This document shows, piece by piece, positions 24,326 through 64,000 of a stretch of DNA of 64,000 bases. Location: contig PDQK01000027.1 in the NCBI GenBank assembly GCA_002746685.1, positions 25,204 to 89,203 of the forward strand, in the 5' to 3' direction. How positions within the stretch are numbered: position 1 is the stretch's first letter; every line of letters starts with the position of its first letter. The notes under the pieces are model-generated. The model saw only the letters and a program-made list of their open reading frames with translations. It did no database searches and was not told the DNA's origin. The DNA comes from Desulfobulbus propionicus. Lineage in GTDB: Bacteria > Desulfobacterota > Desulfobulbia > Desulfobulbales > Desulfobulbaceae. Both the position numbers and the translations under genes were made by a program.

Positions 24326-25225
24326 ATGGCTGATCACCCAATACGCCCTTTAGACCAGGCAGACACGCTGAGGTCGATGAATTCAACAGAAAACGTGGGA
24401 CAAGATCCGCTCCATTCAACAACCAGGGTTTTTTCCATAACCAGCGGCAAAGGTGGAGTGGGCAAAACGGCAGTTGTGGCCAATGTGGCTGTTTTACTGG
24501 CCCAAATGGGTCAACGGGTCCTCATCTTAGACGCTGACCTGGGCCTTGCCAATATTGACGTTGTTTTCGGACTTGCCCCGGGCCACAACCTCAATCATTT
24601 TTTCTCAGGCGAACAGGAGCTTAAAGACATCCTGGTTGAAGGACCTGCAGAGATTAAAATATTACCAGCTGGCTCCGGGGTGCAGCGTTTCACCCGGCTC
24701 GAAACCGCCGAAAAATTGCGCCTTTTAGATGCACTTGATGCCATGCACAATGATTTTGATTTTGTGTTGATTGATACGGAAGCGGGCATCTCTGAAAATG
24801 TCACCTACTTTAACACAGCGGCCCACGAGATTCTGGTGGTGACCACCCCTGATCCAACAGCCATCACCGATGCTTATGCACTGATGAAACTGCTCTCCAC
24901 CCAGTACCATGAGAAACATTTTAATCTGATTGTCAACTTTATCAAAAACGAAGAAGAAGCCCTGGATGTATACCGTAAGCTCACCATGGTGGCCAATCGT
25001 TACCTGGATATTGCCATCGACTATATGGGCTCGGTCCCCAGGGATAAGATGATGATTGACGCCATCCGCAAACAACAGGTGATGGTGGATCTCTTTCCTG
25101 AATCAAAAACAAGTGCAGCCTTTGCAGCCCTGGCCCGCTCCCTCATGCAGGAGCCCCAATCTCTGGAACCCAAAGGTTCTATCCAGTTCTTCTGGAAACG
25201 GCTCCTTGATTTTGGCAATAAATAA
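24326..25225 (+). CDS. flhG: MinD-like ATPase FlhG/FleN
   Basis: DQAxxLR N-terminal motif, SGKGGVGKT, DADLGLAN, C-terminal amphipathic FFWKRLL. Confidence 0.95.
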   Translation: MADHPIRPLDQADTLRSMNSTENVGQDPLHSTTRVFSITSGKGGVGKTAVVANVAVLLAQMGQRVLILDADLGLANIDVVFGLAPGHNLNHFFSGEQELKDILVEGPAEIKILPAGSGVQRFTRLETAEKLRLLDALDAMHNDFDFVLIDTEAGISENVTYFNTAAHEILVVTTPDPTAITDAYALMKLLSTQYHEKHFNLIVNFIKNEEEALDVYRKLTMVANRYLDIAIDYMGSVPRDKMMIDAIRKQQVMVDLFPESKTSAAFAALARSLMQEPQSLEPKGSIQFFWKRLLDFGNK

Positions 25226-55920: not shown

Positions 55921-56295
55921 TTAAGAAATCTTGATATCACCAACATGGTGAGTTGGTGTTTTTTGCGGCGCAGATCGAGGTTGTTTTTCTTTACCAAGCG
56001 CAGCCAAATGCTCACGTTCCCGGCTTCGGATGCCTTGTTCTGAAACTTCAGGCTGCCTGCCTGCATGCGCTGAGCGCCCCCCAACACTTGAGCCTGGCTG
56101 CTGTTCCCCGCTGTTGACGGGCCTCTTGAGCACTGTGAGAATGCCCTCCTGTACCGGAACTGCGCTGACCATTTCCCAGCCCATCAAGCCTTGTTCATTG
56201 AGGGTGTTTTCCATATCCTCATCATTAATGTACTTTTCCCCCAGTAAACCGTCCTTGGCGAATTCAAAAATGATTGTTCGATATTGCCACAACAT
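55921..56295 (-). CDS. DUF4177-like small protein
   Basis: WQYRT...LNEQGLMGWEMVS...LKRP plus disordered tail. Confidence 0.7.
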   Translation of the reverse strand: MLWQYRTIIFEFAKDGLLGEKYINDEDMENTLNEQGLMGWEMVSAVPVQEGILTVLKRPVNSGEQQPGSSVGGRSAHAGRQPEVSEQGIRSREREHLAALGKEKQPRSAPQKTPTHHVGDIKIS

Positions 56296-56378
56296 GCTGA
56301 GCTCCTGTTTATTTTTCTCCCCAGGTCATCTTATAAATGGGGTACCGAGAAGGTTCCTTGTCCACGGGGAGCTTCTTG

Positions 56379-57629
56379 CTACAGCTCTCGGTATACTGCT
56401 TTTACCTCATCAGCTATGAGCCGGATTCCCTCATGCACAGCAGCTTCATCCTGAGAGTAATTAACCCGAATGCATTCATTGATATGCGGCCAATCCTCTT
56501 TCAGTCCGGGAAAGAAATAATCACCGGAAACCACCAGCACCTTACGTTGTTTCAATCGCTGATACAGTTCCCGTGAGGTTATGGGCAAATCAGGAAACCA
56601 GAACCATAAAAACATGGAACCTTCCGGGACATGCACCTTGTATTTGCACCCTTGAAAGGCCTCTTGAACAACCTCCATAACCTTTTCCATCTTGTGCTGG
56701 TAAAAGGGCCTGATAACCTCCTGACTTAAGCGAAGCATTTGACCTGTTTCAATGAGGTTGGTGGTCAGCATTGCACCAAAGCTGCCAGGTGCGAGATTCA
56801 CCACAGCGTTGATTCCGGCCAGCGCCTGTATATATTGTGCATCAGCAATAATGATTCCGGTGCGTACCGCAGGCAGGCCAAACTTGGAGAGGCTCATGGA
56901 AACGATTATATTCTTTCCCCAGATGGGTGTGGCCTCGGTATAAATCATACCTGGAAAGGGAACCCCGTAAGCAGAGTCGATGAGCAAGGGGATATCGTGT
57001 TCCCGGGCGAGCTGTGCAAGCCTTGTTATCTCATCATCGGTCAGCACATTGCCTGTGGGATTGGTTGGTCTGGAAACGCAGATAGCACCAATATCTTCAG
57101 TGAGAGCAATGCTGGAGAAATCGACCCGATACTTAAACAGGTTTTCCCCAACACATTCAATTTTTGGCTTCACTGAAACAAAAAAATCATCACTGAGCCC
57201 CAGGTCTGCGTAGCCGATATACTCAGGAGCCATGGGAAGCAAAATTTTCTTTGCTCCTTCCCTGCTCGGCCCTGCAAACATATTAAACAACATGAAAAAT
57301 GCTGACTGGGAACCATTGGTCAAACACATATTCTCGACGCCGATCTCCCATCCATATTCCCGGCGCAATAGATCAGCCAGGGCCTGGATAAATCCTTTTT
57401 CACCCTGCGGAGGGTCGTAGATGCCGACAAGTTTTCTGAGTTGCTCGTCATCATCAATGATGGTCTGCAGCTGGGTACGAATGATCTCTTGTATTTGCTG
57501 GATATAACCGGGGTTGCCGCCCCCCATCATAATCATGCCATCTTCTGTCGCGGCAATGCCAAGGTCAGACATCAAGGAGAGAATACCTGCACCGTAGGCA
57601 AATTTTTCACCAAAACTTGAAAGTTTCAT
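56379..57629 (-). CDS. avtA: Valine-pyruvate transaminase
   Basis: MGGGNP, TNGSQSAFF, SRPTNPTGN, SLSKFGLP (PLP Lys); start MKLSSFG after GAGGAG. Confidence 0.92.
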   Translation of the reverse strand: MKLSSFGEKFAYGAGILSLMSDLGIAATEDGMIMMGGGNPGYIQQIQEIIRTQLQTIIDDDEQLRKLVGIYDPPQGEKGFIQALADLLRREYGWEIGVENMCLTNGSQSAFFMLFNMFAGPSREGAKKILLPMAPEYIGYADLGLSDDFFVSVKPKIECVGENLFKYRVDFSSIALTEDIGAICVSRPTNPTGNVLTDDEITRLAQLAREHDIPLLIDSAYGVPFPGMIYTEATPIWGKNIIVSMSLSKFGLPAVRTGIIIADAQYIQALAGINAVVNLAPGSFGAMLTTNLIETGQMLRLSQEVIRPFYQHKMEKVMEVVQEAFQGCKYKVHVPEGSMFLWFWFPDLPITSRELYQRLKQRKVLVVSGDYFFPGLKEDWPHINECIRVNYSQDEAAVHEGIRLIADEVKAVYREL

Positions 57630-57643
57630 CTTGTCTCCTCTTG

Positions 57644-57844
57644 TTATGGAGTACATTTTTTGGGACGTTCACAAAACATCTGGCAATGCGCCCCGGAACT
57701 GCTCAAGACAACCGCAGATGGAACACCTTGACATTTAAACCCATAGGCCCTGCACCCTCTGGGATGACGCGGCTCATAGGTAACATAAAAATACCTGCAT
57801 TGCATACAGTTGGGTGGTTTGGACGAGGATCTGGCAGAATCCAT
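57644..57844 (-). CDS. Small Cys-rich putative metal-binding protein
   Basis: NCMQCRYFYVTYEPRHPRGCRAYGFK...SSGAHCQMF; fills the gap in the operon. Confidence 0.7.
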   Translation of the reverse strand: MDSARSSSKPPNCMQCRYFYVTYEPRHPRGCRAYGFKCQGVPSAVVLSSSGAHCQMFCERPKKCTP

Positions 57845-57852
57845 TTTCTCAT

Positions 57853-59922
57853 CTACCCTTTGGTAAATTGCGCTTTAGCCAGCTCCACAGCCTCTTTACG
57901 TGCAAAGAGGGTGACAATATCCCCCCTTCTAAAACGGCTGTTTCCTTTAGGAATATGCAGGGAGCCGTGTCGCTCGATGGAAACCACATTCACCGTATCC
58001 GCAAGGCCCAGATCTTTTAATTGCACCCCCACGGCCTTGTCATCCTTATGAAGCCGCACCTCAACAAAAACATTTTTCTCTTCACGACGCAGCCTGGTGC
58101 TCTCGCCCAACAGCTGTTCCCGCTGCTTGCGCACGATGCCCACATCATAGGCACGGAGAATATTGGAACGGCTGATTAACCCAATCAGGGTTGTATCGCT
58201 GCTTCTGCTGACCACCGGCAGTCTGGCTAAATCCCGGGGAGCCATCTTCTGGATAGCAGTCCAGATAGGTTCATCAGGGTATACGGTCACCGGATCAACC
58301 ACAGCCACATCACCAACTTTGAGTTCACGCAGAGGTTCATCACCTGTGGTAAGTGCTCTCTCCAGATCCTGCAGGGTAACAATCCCGTACAGCAGGCCCT
58401 GTTCATCCACCACTGGAAATCCCAGGAAGTTGGTTTCCTGAAAGAGCTGATACAACCTTGCCAGGGGAGCAGTTTTTTCGACCACCACCGGCTCTGCGTT
58501 CATTACCTCACGCACCATCACGCCCTGCATGATATCCATATCCCGCCCCTGGACAAATCGGATACCACGGCGGGTAAGCTTGGTGGTGTACATGGACTCA
58601 CTGAACAACGCCTGGGAAAGATATGATGCCGACACAGCGGCAATCATAAGGGGTAAGATAAGCCCATAATCGTTACTCATCTCGAACACAATCAGAATAG
58701 CGGTCAATGGAGCATGGGCACAGGCAGCAAAAACTGCAGCCATCCCCACCAGGGCGTATGCTCCTGTGGGGCCAGAAAAGTCCGGCAACAAGGCCGCAAA
58801 CAGGGCTCCCAGCGCTCCACCCAGCATGGCACCAGTAAAAAGAGAGGGTGCAAACACCCCACCGGAATTCCCGGATCCCAGAGTACAGGAGGTTGCAATG
58901 GGTTTGAGCAAAACCAGCAGCAAGCAGGGCCATAAGGCCGTATCCCCCTGCAGTGCCCGCTCTATAAACTCAAAACCAGAGCCGTACATATGAGGCTTGT
59001 GTTCAGCAAGCTCACCAGGGAGCATGTCAAGCAGCGCTGCAGGGGAAGTACCGCTAAAATACACATACCCCATCCCCATCAGCCCGAGCAAGACCGCTCC
59101 AACCGCTGGTTTCAGGGCCAAGGGAAACATCCAGCCATCGAAAAGCCGTTCAAACAGATCCAGTATCCGAATAAAAAAAATCCCCACAAAGGCAGCCACC
59201 ACCCCCAGCACCAGATACAAAACAATCTCCCAGGATGAGGACATGGAATACGCAGGCACCAGAAAGGCGGCCTTATCCCCTAAAAATATCTGGCTGACAA
59301 TGGAAGAGGACACCGCTGCGATGACCACGTTACCAAACATCTTGACCTGCAGCTCGCTCATGAGCACTTCAATGGCAAAGGCAACACCAGCAATGGGCGC
59401 GTTAAAAGTGGCAGCAATGCCTGCTGCAGCTCCGCAGGCTACCAGATTTTTAATCCTCTCATCGGAGAGGTGGAGCACCTGCCCGGTGGCCGAACCAAAG
59501 GCTGAACCCACTTGAACAATGGGCCCTTCCCGCCCGGCCGATCCACCGGAACCAATACAGAGTGCCGAGGCCATAATCTTTGCCAATGCCACCCGTCCAC
59601 GTATCCTCCCGCCCCGCAGGATAAGCGCCTGCATAACCTCAGGGACTCCATGCCCCTTGGCTTCCCGGGCAAACCAGGCTATCAATGGCCCAGCCAGCAA
59701 TGCGCCTGTAACCGGGACTACCAGATAACTCCAGATACCTATAAACGGGATAAGAGTGCAAAAAACCGTATAAAGGATACCTTGGGTGAAGGCAATGAGC
59801 TTGATGAACAATACAGCGCCAAGACCAGTGATCCCTCCAACCAGAATTGCCAGCAAAATGAGCAGCAGTCCCTGGGGCGGGGAAAACCTGTCAAGCAGCA
59901 GACCAAGGGGATTTCTATTCAA
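57853..59922 (-). CDS. ClC-family chloride channel/transporter with CBS pair and TrkA-C-like domain
   Basis: GHGVPE, GREGP, FNAPIAG, GGVFAP, CBS repeats, IPKGNSRFRRGDIV. Confidence 0.92.
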   Translation of the reverse strand: MNRNPLGLLLDRFSPPQGLLLILLAILVGGITGLGAVLFIKLIAFTQGILYTVFCTLIPFIGIWSYLVVPVTGALLAGPLIAWFAREAKGHGVPEVMQALILRGGRIRGRVALAKIMASALCIGSGGSAGREGPIVQVGSAFGSATGQVLHLSDERIKNLVACGAAAGIAATFNAPIAGVAFAIEVLMSELQVKMFGNVVIAAVSSSIVSQIFLGDKAAFLVPAYSMSSSWEIVLYLVLGVVAAFVGIFFIRILDLFERLFDGWMFPLALKPAVGAVLLGLMGMGYVYFSGTSPAALLDMLPGELAEHKPHMYGSGFEFIERALQGDTALWPCLLLVLLKPIATSCTLGSGNSGGVFAPSLFTGAMLGGALGALFAALLPDFSGPTGAYALVGMAAVFAACAHAPLTAILIVFEMSNDYGLILPLMIAAVSASYLSQALFSESMYTTKLTRRGIRFVQGRDMDIMQGVMVREVMNAEPVVVEKTAPLARLYQLFQETNFLGFPVVDEQGLLYGIVTLQDLERALTTGDEPLRELKVGDVAVVDPVTVYPDEPIWTAIQKMAPRDLARLPVVSRSSDTTLIGLISRSNILRAYDVGIVRKQREQLLGESTRLRREEKNVFVEVRLHKDDKAVGVQLKDLGLADTVNVVSIERHGSLHIPKGNSRFRRGDIVTLFARKEAVELAKAQFTKG

Positions 59923-60437
59923 GCACTCCCCCTATGAACCATTTGATTGACGTTTTTGGGAAAATCAAAACAGGCGAGCTTGCCTGTACCTGGGCCAAGC
60001 TCTTTCCACTCTCTGATGTCAACATCCAGCGTAACAATCCCGCAGGTGGGTACGTTATCTATCGCCAAATCACCCAGTGTATTGGCAAGCATGGTAAAAA
60101 CCGGGTTATGGCCAAAAATCAGAACCGTCTCCATGGAACCATCAAGGACACGGAGCAGTGCAATTACCTGGAAAACAGAACCACCGTAAAGCGGTTCTAC
60201 CACCTGGATATGGCTGGTGGGAAAACCAATCTCACCAGCGATGATTGTAGCCGTTGTTCTCGCCCGTTGAGCTGGTGAGGTGAGAATCGTATCTGCCTTA
60301 ATACCTTGTGCGTGGAGCCGTTTCCCCATCTCCGGGGCATCGCGCTTGCCCCGTTTGTTGAGCGGGCGATCCTTGTCAGAGAGCCCCTGGTCGTTCCAGC
60401 TGGACTTTGCATGCCTGCAGATTACAAGCCGCTTCAT
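59919..60437 (-). CDS. SixA-like histidine phosphatase
   Basis: RHAKS, DRPLN.RG, SPAQRA, FGHNP. Confidence 0.9.
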   Translation of the reverse strand: MKRLVICRHAKSSWNDQGLSDKDRPLNKRGKRDAPEMGKRLHAQGIKADTILTSPAQRARTTATIIAGEIGFPTSHIQVVEPLYGGSVFQVIALLRVLDGSMETVLIFGHNPVFTMLANTLGDLAIDNVPTCGIVTLDVDIREWKELGPGTGKLACFDFPKNVNQMVHRGSA

Positions 60438-61180
60438 GGTCTATCCACCTCCTGACAGATCTCTTGCCACAGCTCACTGTAGGCCTGGGCAGCACGGGAT
60501 CGGGGTAAGGCTGCGGTAACGGGTTGACGGTAAAGCCCCATACGCTCAATATCAGCAAGATAGGGGATAGGGGTTTTCAGCACGCTCTTTTTCTTGCCCA
60601 TTGCTCTCATAAGCTCCAGGTGCATCTTCTTCCGTTGCTCTACCATGGAAAACAACACCAGCGCCTTCCGGCGCTTCTCACCTATCTTTTCCATAAACCT
60701 AAACAACTGTTTCAGCGACATTAAAGAGAGCGTAGTGGGGATAATGGGCACCAAAATGCGATCGGCTGCGTAAAAAATATTTTCTGCAAGCAAGGTCACA
60801 TTGGGAGGGCAATCCAGAATTATCCGGTCATATTCCCCCAGCAGTGGCCTGAGTACATTGTCCAGCCGGACAGTGGATTGTTTCAACTCATCCAGGGCAA
60901 TATCGATGTTGCGGTAGGAGAAATCAGCTGGGAGCAGGTCCAGGTCAGGAAAATCCGTCCCCCTGATATTTTTCTCCACATGCTCCCCACCTTTGAGCAA
61001 TTTTTTCGTGTTGAATTTTTTAGGCGACCGAATACGGAAATAGTAGGATGCTGAACCTTGAGGGTCCAGATCACAGAGGAGCGTTTTTGCCCCCTGACTT
61101 GCTGAGAGGTAGGCTAAATTCACTGCGGTGGCGGTTTTTCCGACCCCACCCTTAATGTTATATACGGCTAGAATACTCAT
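60434..61180 (-). CDS. Orphan ParA/Soj-family ATPase
   Basis: KGGVGKT, DLDPQG, ILDCPP; no parB nearby; alternative GTG start at 61186. Confidence 0.92.
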   Translation of the reverse strand: MSILAVYNIKGGVGKTATAVNLAYLSASQGAKTLLCDLDPQGSASYYFRIRSPKKFNTKKLLKGGEHVEKNIRGTDFPDLDLLPADFSYRNIDIALDELKQSTVRLDNVLRPLLGEYDRIILDCPPNVTLLAENIFYAADRILVPIIPTTLSLMSLKQLFRFMEKIGEKRRKALVLFSMVEQRKKMHLELMRAMGKKKSVLKTPIPYLADIERMGLYRQPVTAALPRSRAAQAYSELWQEICQEVDRP

Positions 61181-61191
61181 TCCCACTCTCC

Positions 61192-62730
61192 TTACGAGGC
61201 AAAAAGCTGTTCAAACAGCTCAGTATGAGCAGCGCCACTGAACTTACTGAAAATAGCTTCAAAGTCGTCACGGGCCTTGACCTGCTGCTGATGCAGGTTG
61301 CCCATCAGTCCACCAAGGGCAGCGGTAAGCTCAAGGTTTTTCCTCGAGCCTGGCCGGGTTTCACCGATATATTTTTTGAGCATTTCCTGCTGCACTGAGA
61401 GGTCATTAAAATCACCCAAATAGTTTTGCAGTCGCTTGAGTCGTTTAATGGCGGTCTCAATGTCCTGTTGTGGAAACAGGGAGCTGAAGAATTCAATGGC
61501 ATAACGCAACTTCTTCCCCTGAATGCGAAGGCGATGAATTTCCTTGTCAGATGTGTGCTTAGTGATGGCAAGGCCGTCATTGAGCACTCTTGTATACCGT
61601 TTAAAAATAATTTTTTGCGCAATATCGATCACAGGCAGCTCTGCAAACTTGCCACGGGGTTCACCCGGCTCTTTAAGATACGCACCCCAAGAGGATAAAA
61701 TTTCTTCCACCCTGGCCCCTTTGAGTTCCCGCACCAAAGCTTTTTGTTCCTGAATCCGGGTTGCAGCAAGATTTTCAAAAAAGGTATGCAGTCCCGCCTG
61801 CAGCGATGGGGGCAAGCGCTTCTTATACTCATCCTCATAGAGCAGGTAGACATCCATATCTCTGGCTGGGCCGGTGATTTTGCCCAGGTAGGCAAAATCA
61901 GCCTTGTATTTCTCCACCACGTCTTCAGGCAGGACATTTTTTATCAAAGACAGTCCGGAACGGGTCCGTCTGATGGCTACCCGCAGATCGTGGAGGAACT
62001 CAGAGTCCAGATCCGCGATGGTACCGGGAATATTGGTGTATATGGTATCCAGCAGTTGTTTATAAATGGTCTGTATTGCTGAAAAGGTGGTCTGATCGGG
62101 ATCCAGCTCAAGGATGAACCTGGAAGTATACGCACCCGGAACCCTTCCACTGGTCAGGCTCCCTTGCTCAAGCACAAATCTGCCGGGGGTAACAGCAGCC
62201 GGGGTACATTTTTTAAACACCTTCCTGGCCTGGTTAAGCTCCTCAACATAACCGCGAACAGGTTCAAGCCGGGCAATCCGAAGGAGCTGGTCGTTTTCTT
62301 TGACTGCAAACTGCTCAACAACCAGTCGAACCACGGTTTTTTCATCCCTGTTGAGTAAGCGAAAGGTCTGGGATGCCACTGTGGCTTGAGCAACAGCAGA
62401 AAGACTGCGAATGGCTAAAAGAGGAGCAAGGGTATCTTGGAGCACACCTGCCCCAAAGTCTTTGGCAAACAGGCCTTGGGTGGGCTTTGGTCCGTGGTCT
62501 GCACAAAGGGTTTTTCCTGACTCGATTGCAGATACAATCCAGCGCGTCCCACTACAGGTCAAGACAAGTCCTGCTTTAAACAGTCGCCAATCAAATGAAT
62601 CACAGTATGTCAACTGTTTGGTAACAGGGGCATCAGCGGCCAGGGTAAACTTCTTCTCCAGCCTCAGCACCAGCTCATCAAGTGCCACCTCTGCCGGAAG
62701 CAGCCAGCAATCCCTCCATTCCTGTGCCAT
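61192..62730 (-). CDS. CHAD-domain (polyphosphate-binding) protein with degenerate CYTH-like N-terminus
   Basis: FLHDLRVAIRRTRS, IHRLRIQGKKLRY, LQNYLGDFND; N-terminal YCDSFDWRL. Confidence 0.88.
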   Translation of the reverse strand: MAQEWRDCWLLPAEVALDELVLRLEKKFTLAADAPVTKQLTYCDSFDWRLFKAGLVLTCSGTRWIVSAIESGKTLCADHGPKPTQGLFAKDFGAGVLQDTLAPLLAIRSLSAVAQATVASQTFRLLNRDEKTVVRLVVEQFAVKENDQLLRIARLEPVRGYVEELNQARKVFKKCTPAAVTPGRFVLEQGSLTSGRVPGAYTSRFILELDPDQTTFSAIQTIYKQLLDTIYTNIPGTIADLDSEFLHDLRVAIRRTRSGLSLIKNVLPEDVVEKYKADFAYLGKITGPARDMDVYLLYEDEYKKRLPPSLQAGLHTFFENLAATRIQEQKALVRELKGARVEEILSSWGAYLKEPGEPRGKFAELPVIDIAQKIIFKRYTRVLNDGLAITKHTSDKEIHRLRIQGKKLRYAIEFFSSLFPQQDIETAIKRLKRLQNYLGDFNDLSVQQEMLKKYIGETRPGSRKNLELTAALGGLMGNLHQQQVKARDDFEAIFSKFSGAAHTELFEQLFAS

Positions 62731-62741
62731 AAAATGTGCTC

Positions 62742-63926
62742 CTAACTTCGATAATCTGCGTTTATTTTTACATAGTCGTAAGAAAAATCGCAGGTATACA
62801 CCTCTGTGGACTCCATCCCTTCATGCAGATCAACAATCACTGTAAATGTCTTTTGCTGCAGTACCTTGCTGGCCCGTTGCTCGGCATCGCCGCCCACCAC
62901 CTGTCCTTTTTCAACCAGCACCGCATCATCAAAGGCAATGGAGACCTTTTCAGGGTCAAACACACAATCAGAGCGGCCAAGTGCAGCGATAATTCTCCCC
63001 CAGTTGGCATCTTCTCCGAAAAAAGCAGTCTTAACCAGGGCTGAATTGGCAATGGTCTGAGCAGCACTCATGGCACCATCCTGATCCCGGGCACCATCAA
63101 TGCGCACAGTGACCACCTTGGTGGCACCTTCCCCGTCTTCCACAATCTTCAGCGCCAGCTCATGGAGCACCTTGTGCAATGCTTCCTCAAACGCCTGGGC
63201 TGCTTCTGGGTTGTCCTCGTCAATCCAAGGGTTTCCGGCAGCTCCGTTGGCCATTACCAGCACCATGTCATTGGTTGAGGTATCGCCATCCACGGTGATG
63301 CGGTTAAAACTCTTGTCCACCCCGCTGCGAACCATTTCGTTAAGCACCGGGAAAACAATCTGGGCATCGGTCATCACAAAACACAGCATGGTCGCCATGT
63401 CTGGCATAATCATCCCGGAACCTTTGGCCAGCCCAAGAATTGAGACGGTTTGACCGTCCAGCTCAACCGTTGCCTGGGCTGTTTTGGGAAAGGTATCAGT
63501 GGTCATCATGGCCTGGGCCACATCATCAAAACCTTCCTCGTCAAGCCCCTCCACCAGCTGATCCATAACCTTTTCAAAGGGTGCAATATCCATGGGCAGG
63601 CCAATAACCCCGGTGGAGGCGATCTGTACCAGATCTTCTTCGATACCAAGGTGCTGTGCAACCAGAGAACTACATGCCAGCGCTGTTTCCATACCAGGTT
63701 CACCGGTACAGGCGTTGGCATTACCGCTGTTCACCAGCACCGCCTGCACCTGCCCGCCGCGCAATCGTTCCATATCAATAAGCACTGGCGCTGCTTTCAC
63801 CTTATTGGTGGTGAATACCCCGGCCGTGACCGCTGGTACCTGGGAATAGATAAGTCCGAGATCCAACCGCCCTCGGTACTTTATGCCTGCTTCGACAGCT
63901 GCTGCTGTAAACCCTTTAACGTGCAT
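62742..63926 (-). CDS. argJ: Ornithine acetyltransferase / N-acetylglutamate synthase ArgJ
   Basis: VFTTN...AAP, NSGNANA, KGSGMI.P.MATML, DGDTSTND, DGEGATK, NADYRS. Confidence 0.97.
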   Translation of the reverse strand: MHVKGFTAAAVEAGIKYRGRLDLGLIYSQVPAVTAGVFTTNKVKAAPVLIDMERLRGGQVQAVLVNSGNANACTGEPGMETALACSSLVAQHLGIEEDLVQIASTGVIGLPMDIAPFEKVMDQLVEGLDEEGFDDVAQAMMTTDTFPKTAQATVELDGQTVSILGLAKGSGMIMPDMATMLCFVMTDAQIVFPVLNEMVRSGVDKSFNRITVDGDTSTNDMVLVMANGAAGNPWIDEDNPEAAQAFEEALHKVLHELALKIVEDGEGATKVVTVRIDGARDQDGAMSAAQTIANSALVKTAFFGEDANWGRIIAALGRSDCVFDPEKVSIAFDDAVLVEKGQVVGGDAEQRASKVLQQKTFTVIVDLHEGMESTEVYTCDFSYDYVKINADYRS

Positions 63927-64000
63927 GGGAAGCCTATATCAAATAATAGTTTATCAGAATAATAATACGGTGTAATCTACCAGATACCCTGTAAAAAAAA

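Follow-up and report, generated by a model that had tools for sequence, protein, structure and literature searches.

The window analysed here is a stretch of 64,000 nucleotides (contig PDQK01000027.1 of assembly GCA_002746685.1, Desulfobulbus propionicus, positions 25,204 to 89,203) from a 1.6-Mb Desulfobulbaceae metagenome-assembled genome (MAG) with a completeness of 68.7%. On its minus strand, the gene of a CHAD-domain protein with a TTM-like N-terminal domain is followed by that of an orphan ParA-type ATPase, and comparative analysis makes this pair a strong candidate for the organising machinery of polyphosphate (polyP) granules. Action of the ParA-CHAD module on polyP or its granules is considered highly probable, and the link to polyP is well supported by the kinship of the CHAD protein to the polyP-bound CHAD domain of Chlorobium tepidum (CtCHAD), by invariant residues and by neighbouring polyP genes. 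For a functional tie between this ParA clade and its TTM-like/CHAD partner, the support is about as strong as comparative genomics allows. The preferred reading, to which a probability of roughly 0.5 is given, is that of a two-protein polyP-granule module with an optional phosphatase, in which ParA would position or segregate the granules on the nucleoid in a McdAB-like manner.

For the 512-aa protein encoded at 61192..62730 (minus strand), the predicted polyP-binding partner, Pfam detects only a CHAD domain at residues 224-451, whose 189.6 bits exceed the cut-off of 25.6. Residues 199-510 matched the C. tepidum CHAD structures 6QV7, 3E0S and 6QVA, the last being a complex with polyphosphate, with an E-value of 1e-54. 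An AlphaFold2 (AF2) model of the protein, built on 46 partner sequences, reached a pLDDT of 92.8 and a pTM of 0.88, and Foldseek superimposed its C-terminal half on 6QVA with a TM-score of 0.94 and an rmsd of 1.6 Å. The residues H247, R250, R254, R290, H399, R402, K406 and R409 do not vary among the 46 partner sequences. The first four of these correspond to His253, Arg256, Arg260 and Arg296 of CtCHAD, mutation of which weakens polyP binding (PMC6537752). Binding of polyP through the CHAD domain, as predicted from this close relative and the conserved residues, is well supported.

The N-terminal domain (residues 1-198) is beta-rich in the AF2 model, with a pLDDT mostly above 90. Its Foldseek matches include the ThTPase structures 3BHD and 3TVL, YgiF (5A60), AtTTM3 and SaTTM, with E-values from 5e-8 to 6e-3 and TM-scores of about 0.5. 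The original prediction had described the protein as CYTH-like/CHAD, which holds for the predicted TTM/CYTH fold but not at the level of sequence: the domain gave no match to Pfam CYTH (PF01928), and no conserved N-terminal ExExK motif is present among the 46 aligned partners. This motif is kept by the stand-alone CYTH neighbours and by the ParA-CYTH fusions described below. The conserved set of the domain consists instead of DTFDWRL (44-50), R108, K131, G160-Y161 and Y201, and the domain is probably a degenerate triphosphate-tunnel fold without catalytic function.

The ParA gene (60434..61180, minus strand; 248 aa from ATG 61180) follows the CHAD gene after 11 nt, a gap which contains a GGAG Shine-Dalgarno sequence. 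Its frame is also open from GTG 61186 (60434-61186), but ATG 61180 is the more likely start because the homologues all begin with M-S/K-I-L. In a phylum sample of 301 Desulfobacterota genomes, a ParA with at least 43% identity to that of the window occurs in 13, after which the scores fall from 206 to 114 bits. A CHAD gene adjoins the ParA gene in all 12 clade genomes (12/12), in 11 of them directly upstream. Only 12 of the 37 CHAD matches of the sample have a clade ParA, and none of its other CHAD loci has an adjacent ParA. As all clade ParAs occur with CHAD while only some CHADs occur with ParA, it is ParA that depends on CHAD and not the reverse. The thirteenth genome (G040) has no CHAD, PPK1 or PPK2 gene anywhere, and its ParA (L043:7572-8321, 43% identical) lies on a long branch; for these reasons it was rejected as a functional clade member. 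Its gene neighbour encodes a PAS/coiled-coil protein, and this ParA may have taken on another purpose.

A cross-phylum scan of bacteria and archaea, using one genome per species, yielded 80 loci with 49-70% identity, spread over about 14 groups of phylum rank, among them Chlorobiota, Chloroflexota, Actinomycetota, Latescibacterota, Gemmatimonadota, Calditrichota, Spirochaetota, Lentisphaerota, Acidobacteriota, KSB1, Poribacteria and Pseudomonadota (Nitrosomonas, Sedimenticola, Methylococcales). In 72 of the 80 loci, a CHAD open reading frame (ORF) of about 510-530 aa, where complete, is located directly upstream on the same strand. The other eight comprise two loci cut by contig ends, one with a CHAD remnant and five without an adjacent CHAD gene, the latter from one Methylococcales subclade and one Acidobacterium. 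Each of these five split-pair genomes encodes exactly one TTM-CHAD protein elsewhere, with all N-domain motifs intact. In the Methylococcales L104, L118, L123 and L137 the ParA gene was found relocated between prfB and dtd (D-Tyr-tRNA deacylase), and the TTM-CHAD gene persists elsewhere in L104, L123 and L137, the three genomes of this subclade that were searched. A complete CHAD-ParA pair with 56% identity was also observed in an ANME-1-labelled MAG (L070, WSZT01000154.1, labelled Methanophagales archaeon); the pair was either acquired horizontally or reached the bin as contamination from a syntrophic sulfate reducer.

Altogether, the pairing of a TTM-like/CHAD protein with a clade ParA was found in about 90 genomes. 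At 82 CHAD-to-ParA junctions, the genes overlap in 40 cases (in 34 by 4 nt) and are 0-30 nt apart in another 26, so that predicted translational coupling of the pair is well supported as the usual state. With a clade profile, members scored 329-428 bits (428 for the window ParA), and none of the other ParAs tested, among them the Soj of this genome, exceeded 135 bits. In a tree obtained by quick search, a long branch with SH-aLRT support of 96-98 sets the clade apart. Identity to the window ParA is 50-59% for clade ParAs of other phyla and 33-37% for non-clade ParAs of its own phylum. That a clade ParA exists only together with this CHAD subfamily is well supported by these gene-content comparisons.

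An ordinary partition ParA that stands beside a CHAD gene by chance, or through an adjacency specific to one lineage, could have been proposed for this locus, given that ParA genes are abundant and mobile and that the window ParA carries only generic annotation in public sources. The comparative data already contradict this very improbable explanation. Adjacency and co-occurrence extend over about 14 phyla and are accompanied by translational coupling and fusions, the ParA tree follows family taxonomy around the window, and the bimodal profile scores argue against a circular clade definition. Neither parB nor a parS-type partner nor mobile-element genes were found at the locus. The absence of parB, as first noted, is therefore confirmed for the locus but not for the genome, in which the only strong ParB_N match adjoins a separate Soj-like ParA on contig 43. 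As this canonical Soj-ParB pair is located elsewhere, the window ParA is an extra, orphan one.

The genes surrounding the pair were counted within 6 kb at the 80 loci. SixA-like genes were found at 16-20 loci, stand-alone CYTH genes at 13, PPK2 at 10, PPK1 at 9, argJ at 8, and Metallophos_2, PepN and PPX at 7 each. Larger clusters with the order PPK1-CHAD-ParA-x-CYTH-SixA, with PPK2 close by, and PPK2-PPK1-CHAD-ParA are present in two Desulfobacterota genomes (G201 and G099, respectively). Both PPK1 and PPK2 are encoded in 9 of the 11 other clade genomes of the phylum sample. In the contig of the window, and likewise in G160, a genome of the same genus, the distance between CHAD and PPK2 is about 4-5 kb. 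The proposed co-occurrence of this ParA clade with CHAD, ppk and ppx is thus borne out by the 12/12 and 72/80 loci, the split pairs, the fusions and the recurrence of PPK1, PPK2 and PPX nearby.

In these surroundings polyP might also serve as a signal and not as a cargo, with CHAD sensing polyP and modulating a ParA that acts on the chromosome or another complex under starvation. CHAD is the sole conserved cargo-type gene beside ParA in the survey of the 80 loci. Its domain has a nanomolar affinity for polyP and is enzymatically inactive (PMC6537752), and recent work ties polyP to nucleoid structure (PMC11894788, PMC13556221), both of which would suit a sensor. According to the literature, CHAD proteins coat polyP granules in vivo, which speaks for a cargo. 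In addition, the gene of an orphan ParA normally stands next to that of its cargo or adaptor. The only clade-like ParA without CHAD, that of G040, also lacks PPK1 and PPK2 and has a long branch, so this ParA seems to lose constraint once the polyP genes are gone. A signalling role is consequently regarded as improbable, and polyP as a cargo is retained in what follows.

The ParA protein itself gave Pfam matches to AAA_31 (137 bits) and CbiA (63.9 bits). The motifs KGGVGKT with the signature Lys (K10, K15), DLDPQ (D37, D39) and ILDCPP (D123) are invariant in 11 clade members, and the prediction from these motifs of an intact deviant-Walker-A ATPase is well supported. This agrees with the signature-Lys Walker A (K10 and K15 of KGGVGKT) read in the original prediction, as do two further features given there. 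The protein has no N-terminal helix-turn-helix (HTH), since it begins directly at Walker A, and no MinD-type membrane helix, since it ends with ...WQEICQEVDRP after the last core helix; the tails of the clade vary. It remained under every NCBIfam equivalog cut-off, with 90.3 bits against 180 for ParA_partition (NF041546) and 36.5 bits against 212.9 for minD_bact. A second ParA/MinD-family gene of the window, at 24326-25225 (+), scored 146.7 bits against the archaeal MinD NCBIfam, below its cut-off; it is probably FlhG and unrelated to the ParA-CHAD pair.

The clade is basic, with a median pI of 9.4 and a net charge of +9. Ten Lys/Arg residues conserved in it (R49, R51, K55, K59, R90, K100, K172, K184, R213, R218) are missing from the Soj-type relatives. 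R183 falls in the Soj Arg189 column, where 8RAY and six Soj-like outgroup sequences have a conserved Arg; in B. subtilis Soj, non-specific DNA binding requires this Arg. The patches EKRRK and EQRKK contain K172 and R183/K184, respectively. These features fit binding to a polyanion, although the sequence does not tell DNA and polyP apart.

Under the preferred positioning reading, ATP-bound ParA dimers would bind a polyanionic matrix, most likely nucleoid DNA. Such binding is proposed because the DNA-binding Arg column of Soj is kept and ten further basic residues are conserved. ParA would then engage the CHAD protein at the granule surface, and ATP turnover would space, anchor or partition the granules by analogy with McdA/McdB and carboxysomes.

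Physical cooperation of the two partners is strongly argued by natural single-chain fusions of the clade ParA with modules predicted to bind polyP or triphosphate. These were found as longer relatives of the clade profile and judged on the protein sequence by domain mapping and inspection of the junctions. In-frame TTM-CHAD-ParA chains were recovered in P0140, P0150 and P0156, as well as in P0242 and P0126, and the reverse order, ParA-TTM-CHAD, in P0138. In about 13 further clusters (e.g. P0143, P0147, P0198), ParA is joined by a long Pro/Ala/Glu-rich linker to a canonical CYTH domain with ExExK. Several other apparent CHAD-ParA fusions (such as P0141 and P0155) were rejected, as the end of CHAD is truncated and followed by about 80 Arg/Ala-rich junk residues, which look like frameshift artefacts. 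Also rejected was a 1150-aa "CHAD" ORF of G099, an over-extension that overlaps ppk1 in another frame. Clade-like ParAs were observed in two other fusion types, namely with a sucrose-6-phosphate-phosphatase-type HAD domain (P0124-P0134, about 561 aa, 53% identical to the window ParA) and with a periplasmic-type SBP_bac_3 domain (P0157-P0181, about 500-540 aa, 45-49% identical).

Several observations weigh against positioning by ParA on the nucleoid. The same covalent fusions argue for a stable complex more than for a diffusion ratchet, and are awkward for a classical ratchet because in it ParA and its partner must separate. The AF2 model of a natural TTM-CHAD-ParA fusion has well-modelled domains (pLDDT 91.6) and a pTM of 0.73, which is not decisive. 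The basic surface of ParA could bind polyP in place of DNA. Disordered basic terminal peptides on partner proteins stimulate other ParAs, and no conserved peptide of this kind was found at the N- or C-terminus of the 46 CHAD partners. At the N-terminus they vary and are folded, and at the C-terminus 21 of the 46 carry a short Lys/Arg tail, which the window CHAD lacks. PPK1 and PPX were not found in the 68.7%-complete MAG, and the nearby PPK2 reads as frameshifted; PPK1 is present in the same-genus genome G160. CHAD proteins of the same subfamily occur without ParA in two relatives (G016, G167). Finally, polyP spacing in S. elongatus is independent of McdA, its only ParA (PMC13556221). Because no dedicated ParA spaces the granules of this species, granule spacing does not in general depend on ParA.

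Part of these observations would be better met by a ParA that acts as an ATP-gated regulator or clamp in a stable complex with TTM-like/CHAD on polyP and not as a positioning motor. Its ATP-dependent dimerisation would control nucleation, size, coalescence or enzyme access, or would provide a static tether between granule and nucleoid, and its basic surface may bind polyP itself. Fusions in both orders, ParA-CYTH fusions with the catalytic ExExK motif and the missing ParA-stimulating peptide all suit this view. So does the unusually basic clade, whose ten specific Lys/Arg include those of a low-confidence loop at about 51-71; this loop, with K55 and K59, is the sole low-confidence ParA stretch in the AF2 fusion model. 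The recurrent neighbours are moreover enzymes (PPK1, PPK2, PPX, CYTH, SixA, metallophosphoesterase) rather than structural or DNA-binding proteins, and many ParA/MinD relatives (NifH, Mrp/ApbC, BcsQ, FlhG) are switches and not cargo movers. On the other hand, the nearest relatives by sequence are Soj/ParA partition ATPases with the same DNA-binding Arg column, and ParA and CHAD are separate proteins in most genomes. At some loci a HhH protein with a histone H1-like Lys-rich tail suggests a connection to the nucleoid. Furthermore, PPK1 and CHAD remained in G016 after the loss of ParA, which is thus not needed for the synthesis genes to persist. Taken together, a clamp or regulator is the main rival of the positioning reading, possible but less likely.

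A further reading, likewise considered possible but unlikely, is an ATP-driven condensate organiser that would differ from the classical ratchet, with a ParA dimer that binds polyP, or bridges polyP and DNA, in stable association with TTM-like/CHAD, to which it is in some cases fused. If true, ATP turnover would set the number, size or fission of the granules as well as their position.

The genomes in which ParA has been lost are informative for the preferred organising role. In the complete genome G016, of the same family as the window, argJ-CHAD and PPK1 are kept while ParA and SixA are both lost. The CHAD protein of this genome (L024:5876-7444) carries K131D and Y161H at N-domain positions that are invariant in the 46 ParA-linked partners, a single case which gives a hint that the TTM-like domain may be the part working with ParA. 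The second relative, G167, has an intact CHAD gene of the same subfamily with SixA upstream and no ParA. ParA is accordingly accessory and dispensable for having polyP genes. Since relatives keep CHAD, and one of them also PPK1, without ParA, it should affect the organisation of the granules and not the synthesis of polyP, and its losses fit an organising role better than a biosynthetic one. A HhH (HHH_5) protein whose long, Lys-rich tail resembles those of histone H1 and AlgP was observed at L053:7414-7926 (-) in the Desulfobacterota genome G283, where its gene closes a CHAD-ParA-CYTH operon, and also at L082:11319-11738. The protein of G283 may be a link to the nucleoid; the window has no such gene.

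The third gene of the set (59919..60437, minus strand) encodes a SixA-like histidine phosphatase of 172 aa (Pfam His_Phos_1, 56.5 bits), whose ATG overlaps the ParA stop codon (ATGA). With 63.2 bits it stays under the TIGR00249 equivalog cut-off of 74.5. The catalytic motifs RHA (R8, H9) and GHNP (H110) are present, and the nearest solved structures are the putative SixA proteins 2RFL and 4HBZ (E-value 1e-8). A role as regulator of the ParA system, as had been suggested, is not upheld. Orthologues with at least 38% identity adjoin about 27 of 92 ParA-CHAD loci, which is only about one quarter to one third, and about half of the CHAD loci without ParA have a more distant SixA-like gene as a neighbour. 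SixA is among the genes typically found with PPK, PPX and CHAD, and Sulfolobus has a co-transcribed ppx-sixA-PPK3-CHAD operon (PMC12995831, PMC10892726). Because SixA-like genes accompany CHAD with or without ParA, this is a general, facultative polyP-cluster gene and not a ParA-specific one. Seemingly fused X-SixA proteins of 355-376 aa (G099, G282) were rejected as over-extended ORFs in high-GC sequence, with an Arg/Gly/Pro junk N-terminus and the real start at MKRL.

These three genes belong to five closely packed genes on the minus strand, in the order argJ, CHAD, ParA, SixA-like and CLC channel. The tight coupling of CHAD, ParA and SixA that had been described was found again in the ORFs, the 11-nt gap and the ATGA overlap. 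The argJ gene (62742..63926, minus strand; Pfam ArgJ, 497.9 bits) lies upstream and ends 11 nt before the CHAD gene. It was rejected as a part of the module, since its synteny is restricted to Desulfobulbales and persists in G016 without ParA; the 8 of 80 loci with argJ are all Desulfobulbales-like by the ParA tree, and the gene is adjacent in genomes of family f1 including G016. At the other end, a chloride channel/exchanger gene of the CLC-CBS-TrkA_C type (57853..59922, minus strand; Pfam Voltage_CLC, CBS, TrkA_C) overlaps the SixA stop codon with its TTG start (TTGA). It is co-oriented with SixA and probably co-transcribed with the cluster, but was likewise rejected as a module part, as it follows SixA only in the window and in G160. 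Scans for promoter and terminator consensus sequences over 56000-64000 gave counts at or near shuffle level and are uninformative on the limits of the operon.

Two further genes were observed just outside the window. A PPK2 gene lies about 4.3 kb beyond CHAD (L022:10230-11010; G000:C7:~92230-93010); it is split over two reading frames that change close to a run of C, and a stop codon occurs close to its start. As PPK2 is intact at the equivalent relative position in G160, this frameshift is either an assembly error of the MAG or a pseudogene. A Metallophos_2 phosphoesterase gene (L022:8785-9501, +) follows a cardiolipin-synthase-like PLD gene and lies about 3 kb from CHAD. Enzymes of this family near ParA-CHAD pairs may be a further polyP-related hydrolase.

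The placing, spacing and inheritance of polyP granules is an acknowledged open question, for which the ParA-CHAD pair provides a concrete two-gene handle. Carriers include the cultured or tractable genera Chlorobium, Nitrosomonas, Methylomonas and Sedimenticola as well as relatives of the cable bacteria, and some carriers are known for conspicuous polyP granules. If the preferred reading is true, an inorganic polymer would join DNA, protein shells and protein arrays among the cargoes that ParA/MinD proteins position, and a likely role would be assigned to a large TTM-like/CHAD group so far known just for polyP binding. In line with the original prediction, no characterised ParA system for polyP granules is described in the full-text literature up to November 2026. 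According to reviews, the proteins that position polyP granules are unidentified in most species (PMC13556221, PMC13052382). A 2025 review lists AlgP alone for these granules and marks ATP dependence as "Unknown" (PMC13052382), while a 2026 mBio paper calls the spacing mechanism undefined in E. coli and Caulobacter (PMC13556221). The conserved order folD-ppk-parA-CHAD in Acidithiobacillus was mentioned in passing in 2024 without interpretation (PMC10892726).

Compared with known systems, the nearest solved relatives of the window ParA by sequence are Soj/ParA proteins (T. thermophilus 1WCV, H. pylori 6IUB and ParA 8RAY). It shares with them the deviant Walker A with signature Lys, the length, the fold class and the conserved Arg column, but differs by an identity of only about 33-37%, its distinct clade, the lack of an adjacent ParB and the ten clade-specific basic residues. 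Among known CHAD proteins, CtCHAD and the "phosins" such as PptA of R. eutropha are the closest counterparts of the window protein. Its CHAD domain is 37% identical to CtCHAD (6QV7/6QVA) over about 310 residues, with the TM-score of 0.94 given above and the polyP-coordinating His/Arg kept. Orthologues of CtCHAD in Chlorobiaceae (253 bits to 3E0S/6QV7) are themselves followed by a clade ParA in L099, L121 and L124. The parts of the CtCHAD study (Lorenzo-Orts et al. 2019) considered here concern the isolated CHAD domain and leave the N-terminal TTM-like domain and the downstream ParA unaddressed. YgiF of E. coli (5A60), a TTM-CHAD tripolyphosphatase, has the same succession of a TTM tunnel and CHAD (Foldseek E-value 5e-8). 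The window N-domain differs in lacking ExExK and a Pfam CYTH match and in having its own conserved set, and no ParA accompanies YgiF.

AlgP of P. aeruginosa and PhaM, PhaF and PhaH, which tether polyP and PHB granules to the nucleoid, share with the window pair the proposed outcome of storage granules evenly spaced or inherited through the nucleoid (PMC9239181, PMC13052382). These are single proteins that bind both DNA and the granule, with no known ATP requirement, whereas the window pair includes an ATPase, and no H1-like protein is encoded in the window. McdA/McdB of S. elongatus and H. neapolitanus similarly consists of an orphan ParA-type ATPase encoded beside a binder of a non-DNA inclusion, without parB at the locus, and its function in spacing or partitioning an organelle or storage body is the one predicted for the window ParA. 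As in that system, the ParA-type ATPase is encoded beside, and co-inherited with, its cargo-bound partner, here CHAD. The window ParA is not an orthologue of McdA, as McdA (6NOO) is matched with an E-value of 5e-11 and Soj with 1e-20 to 1e-25. Further differences are the folded TTM-like/CHAD partner in place of the disordered McdB, an inorganic polymer as the predicted cargo and the natural fusions of ParA with its partner. Relative to the known ParA/MinD cargo systems, it is the type of partner and the predicted cargo that are new.

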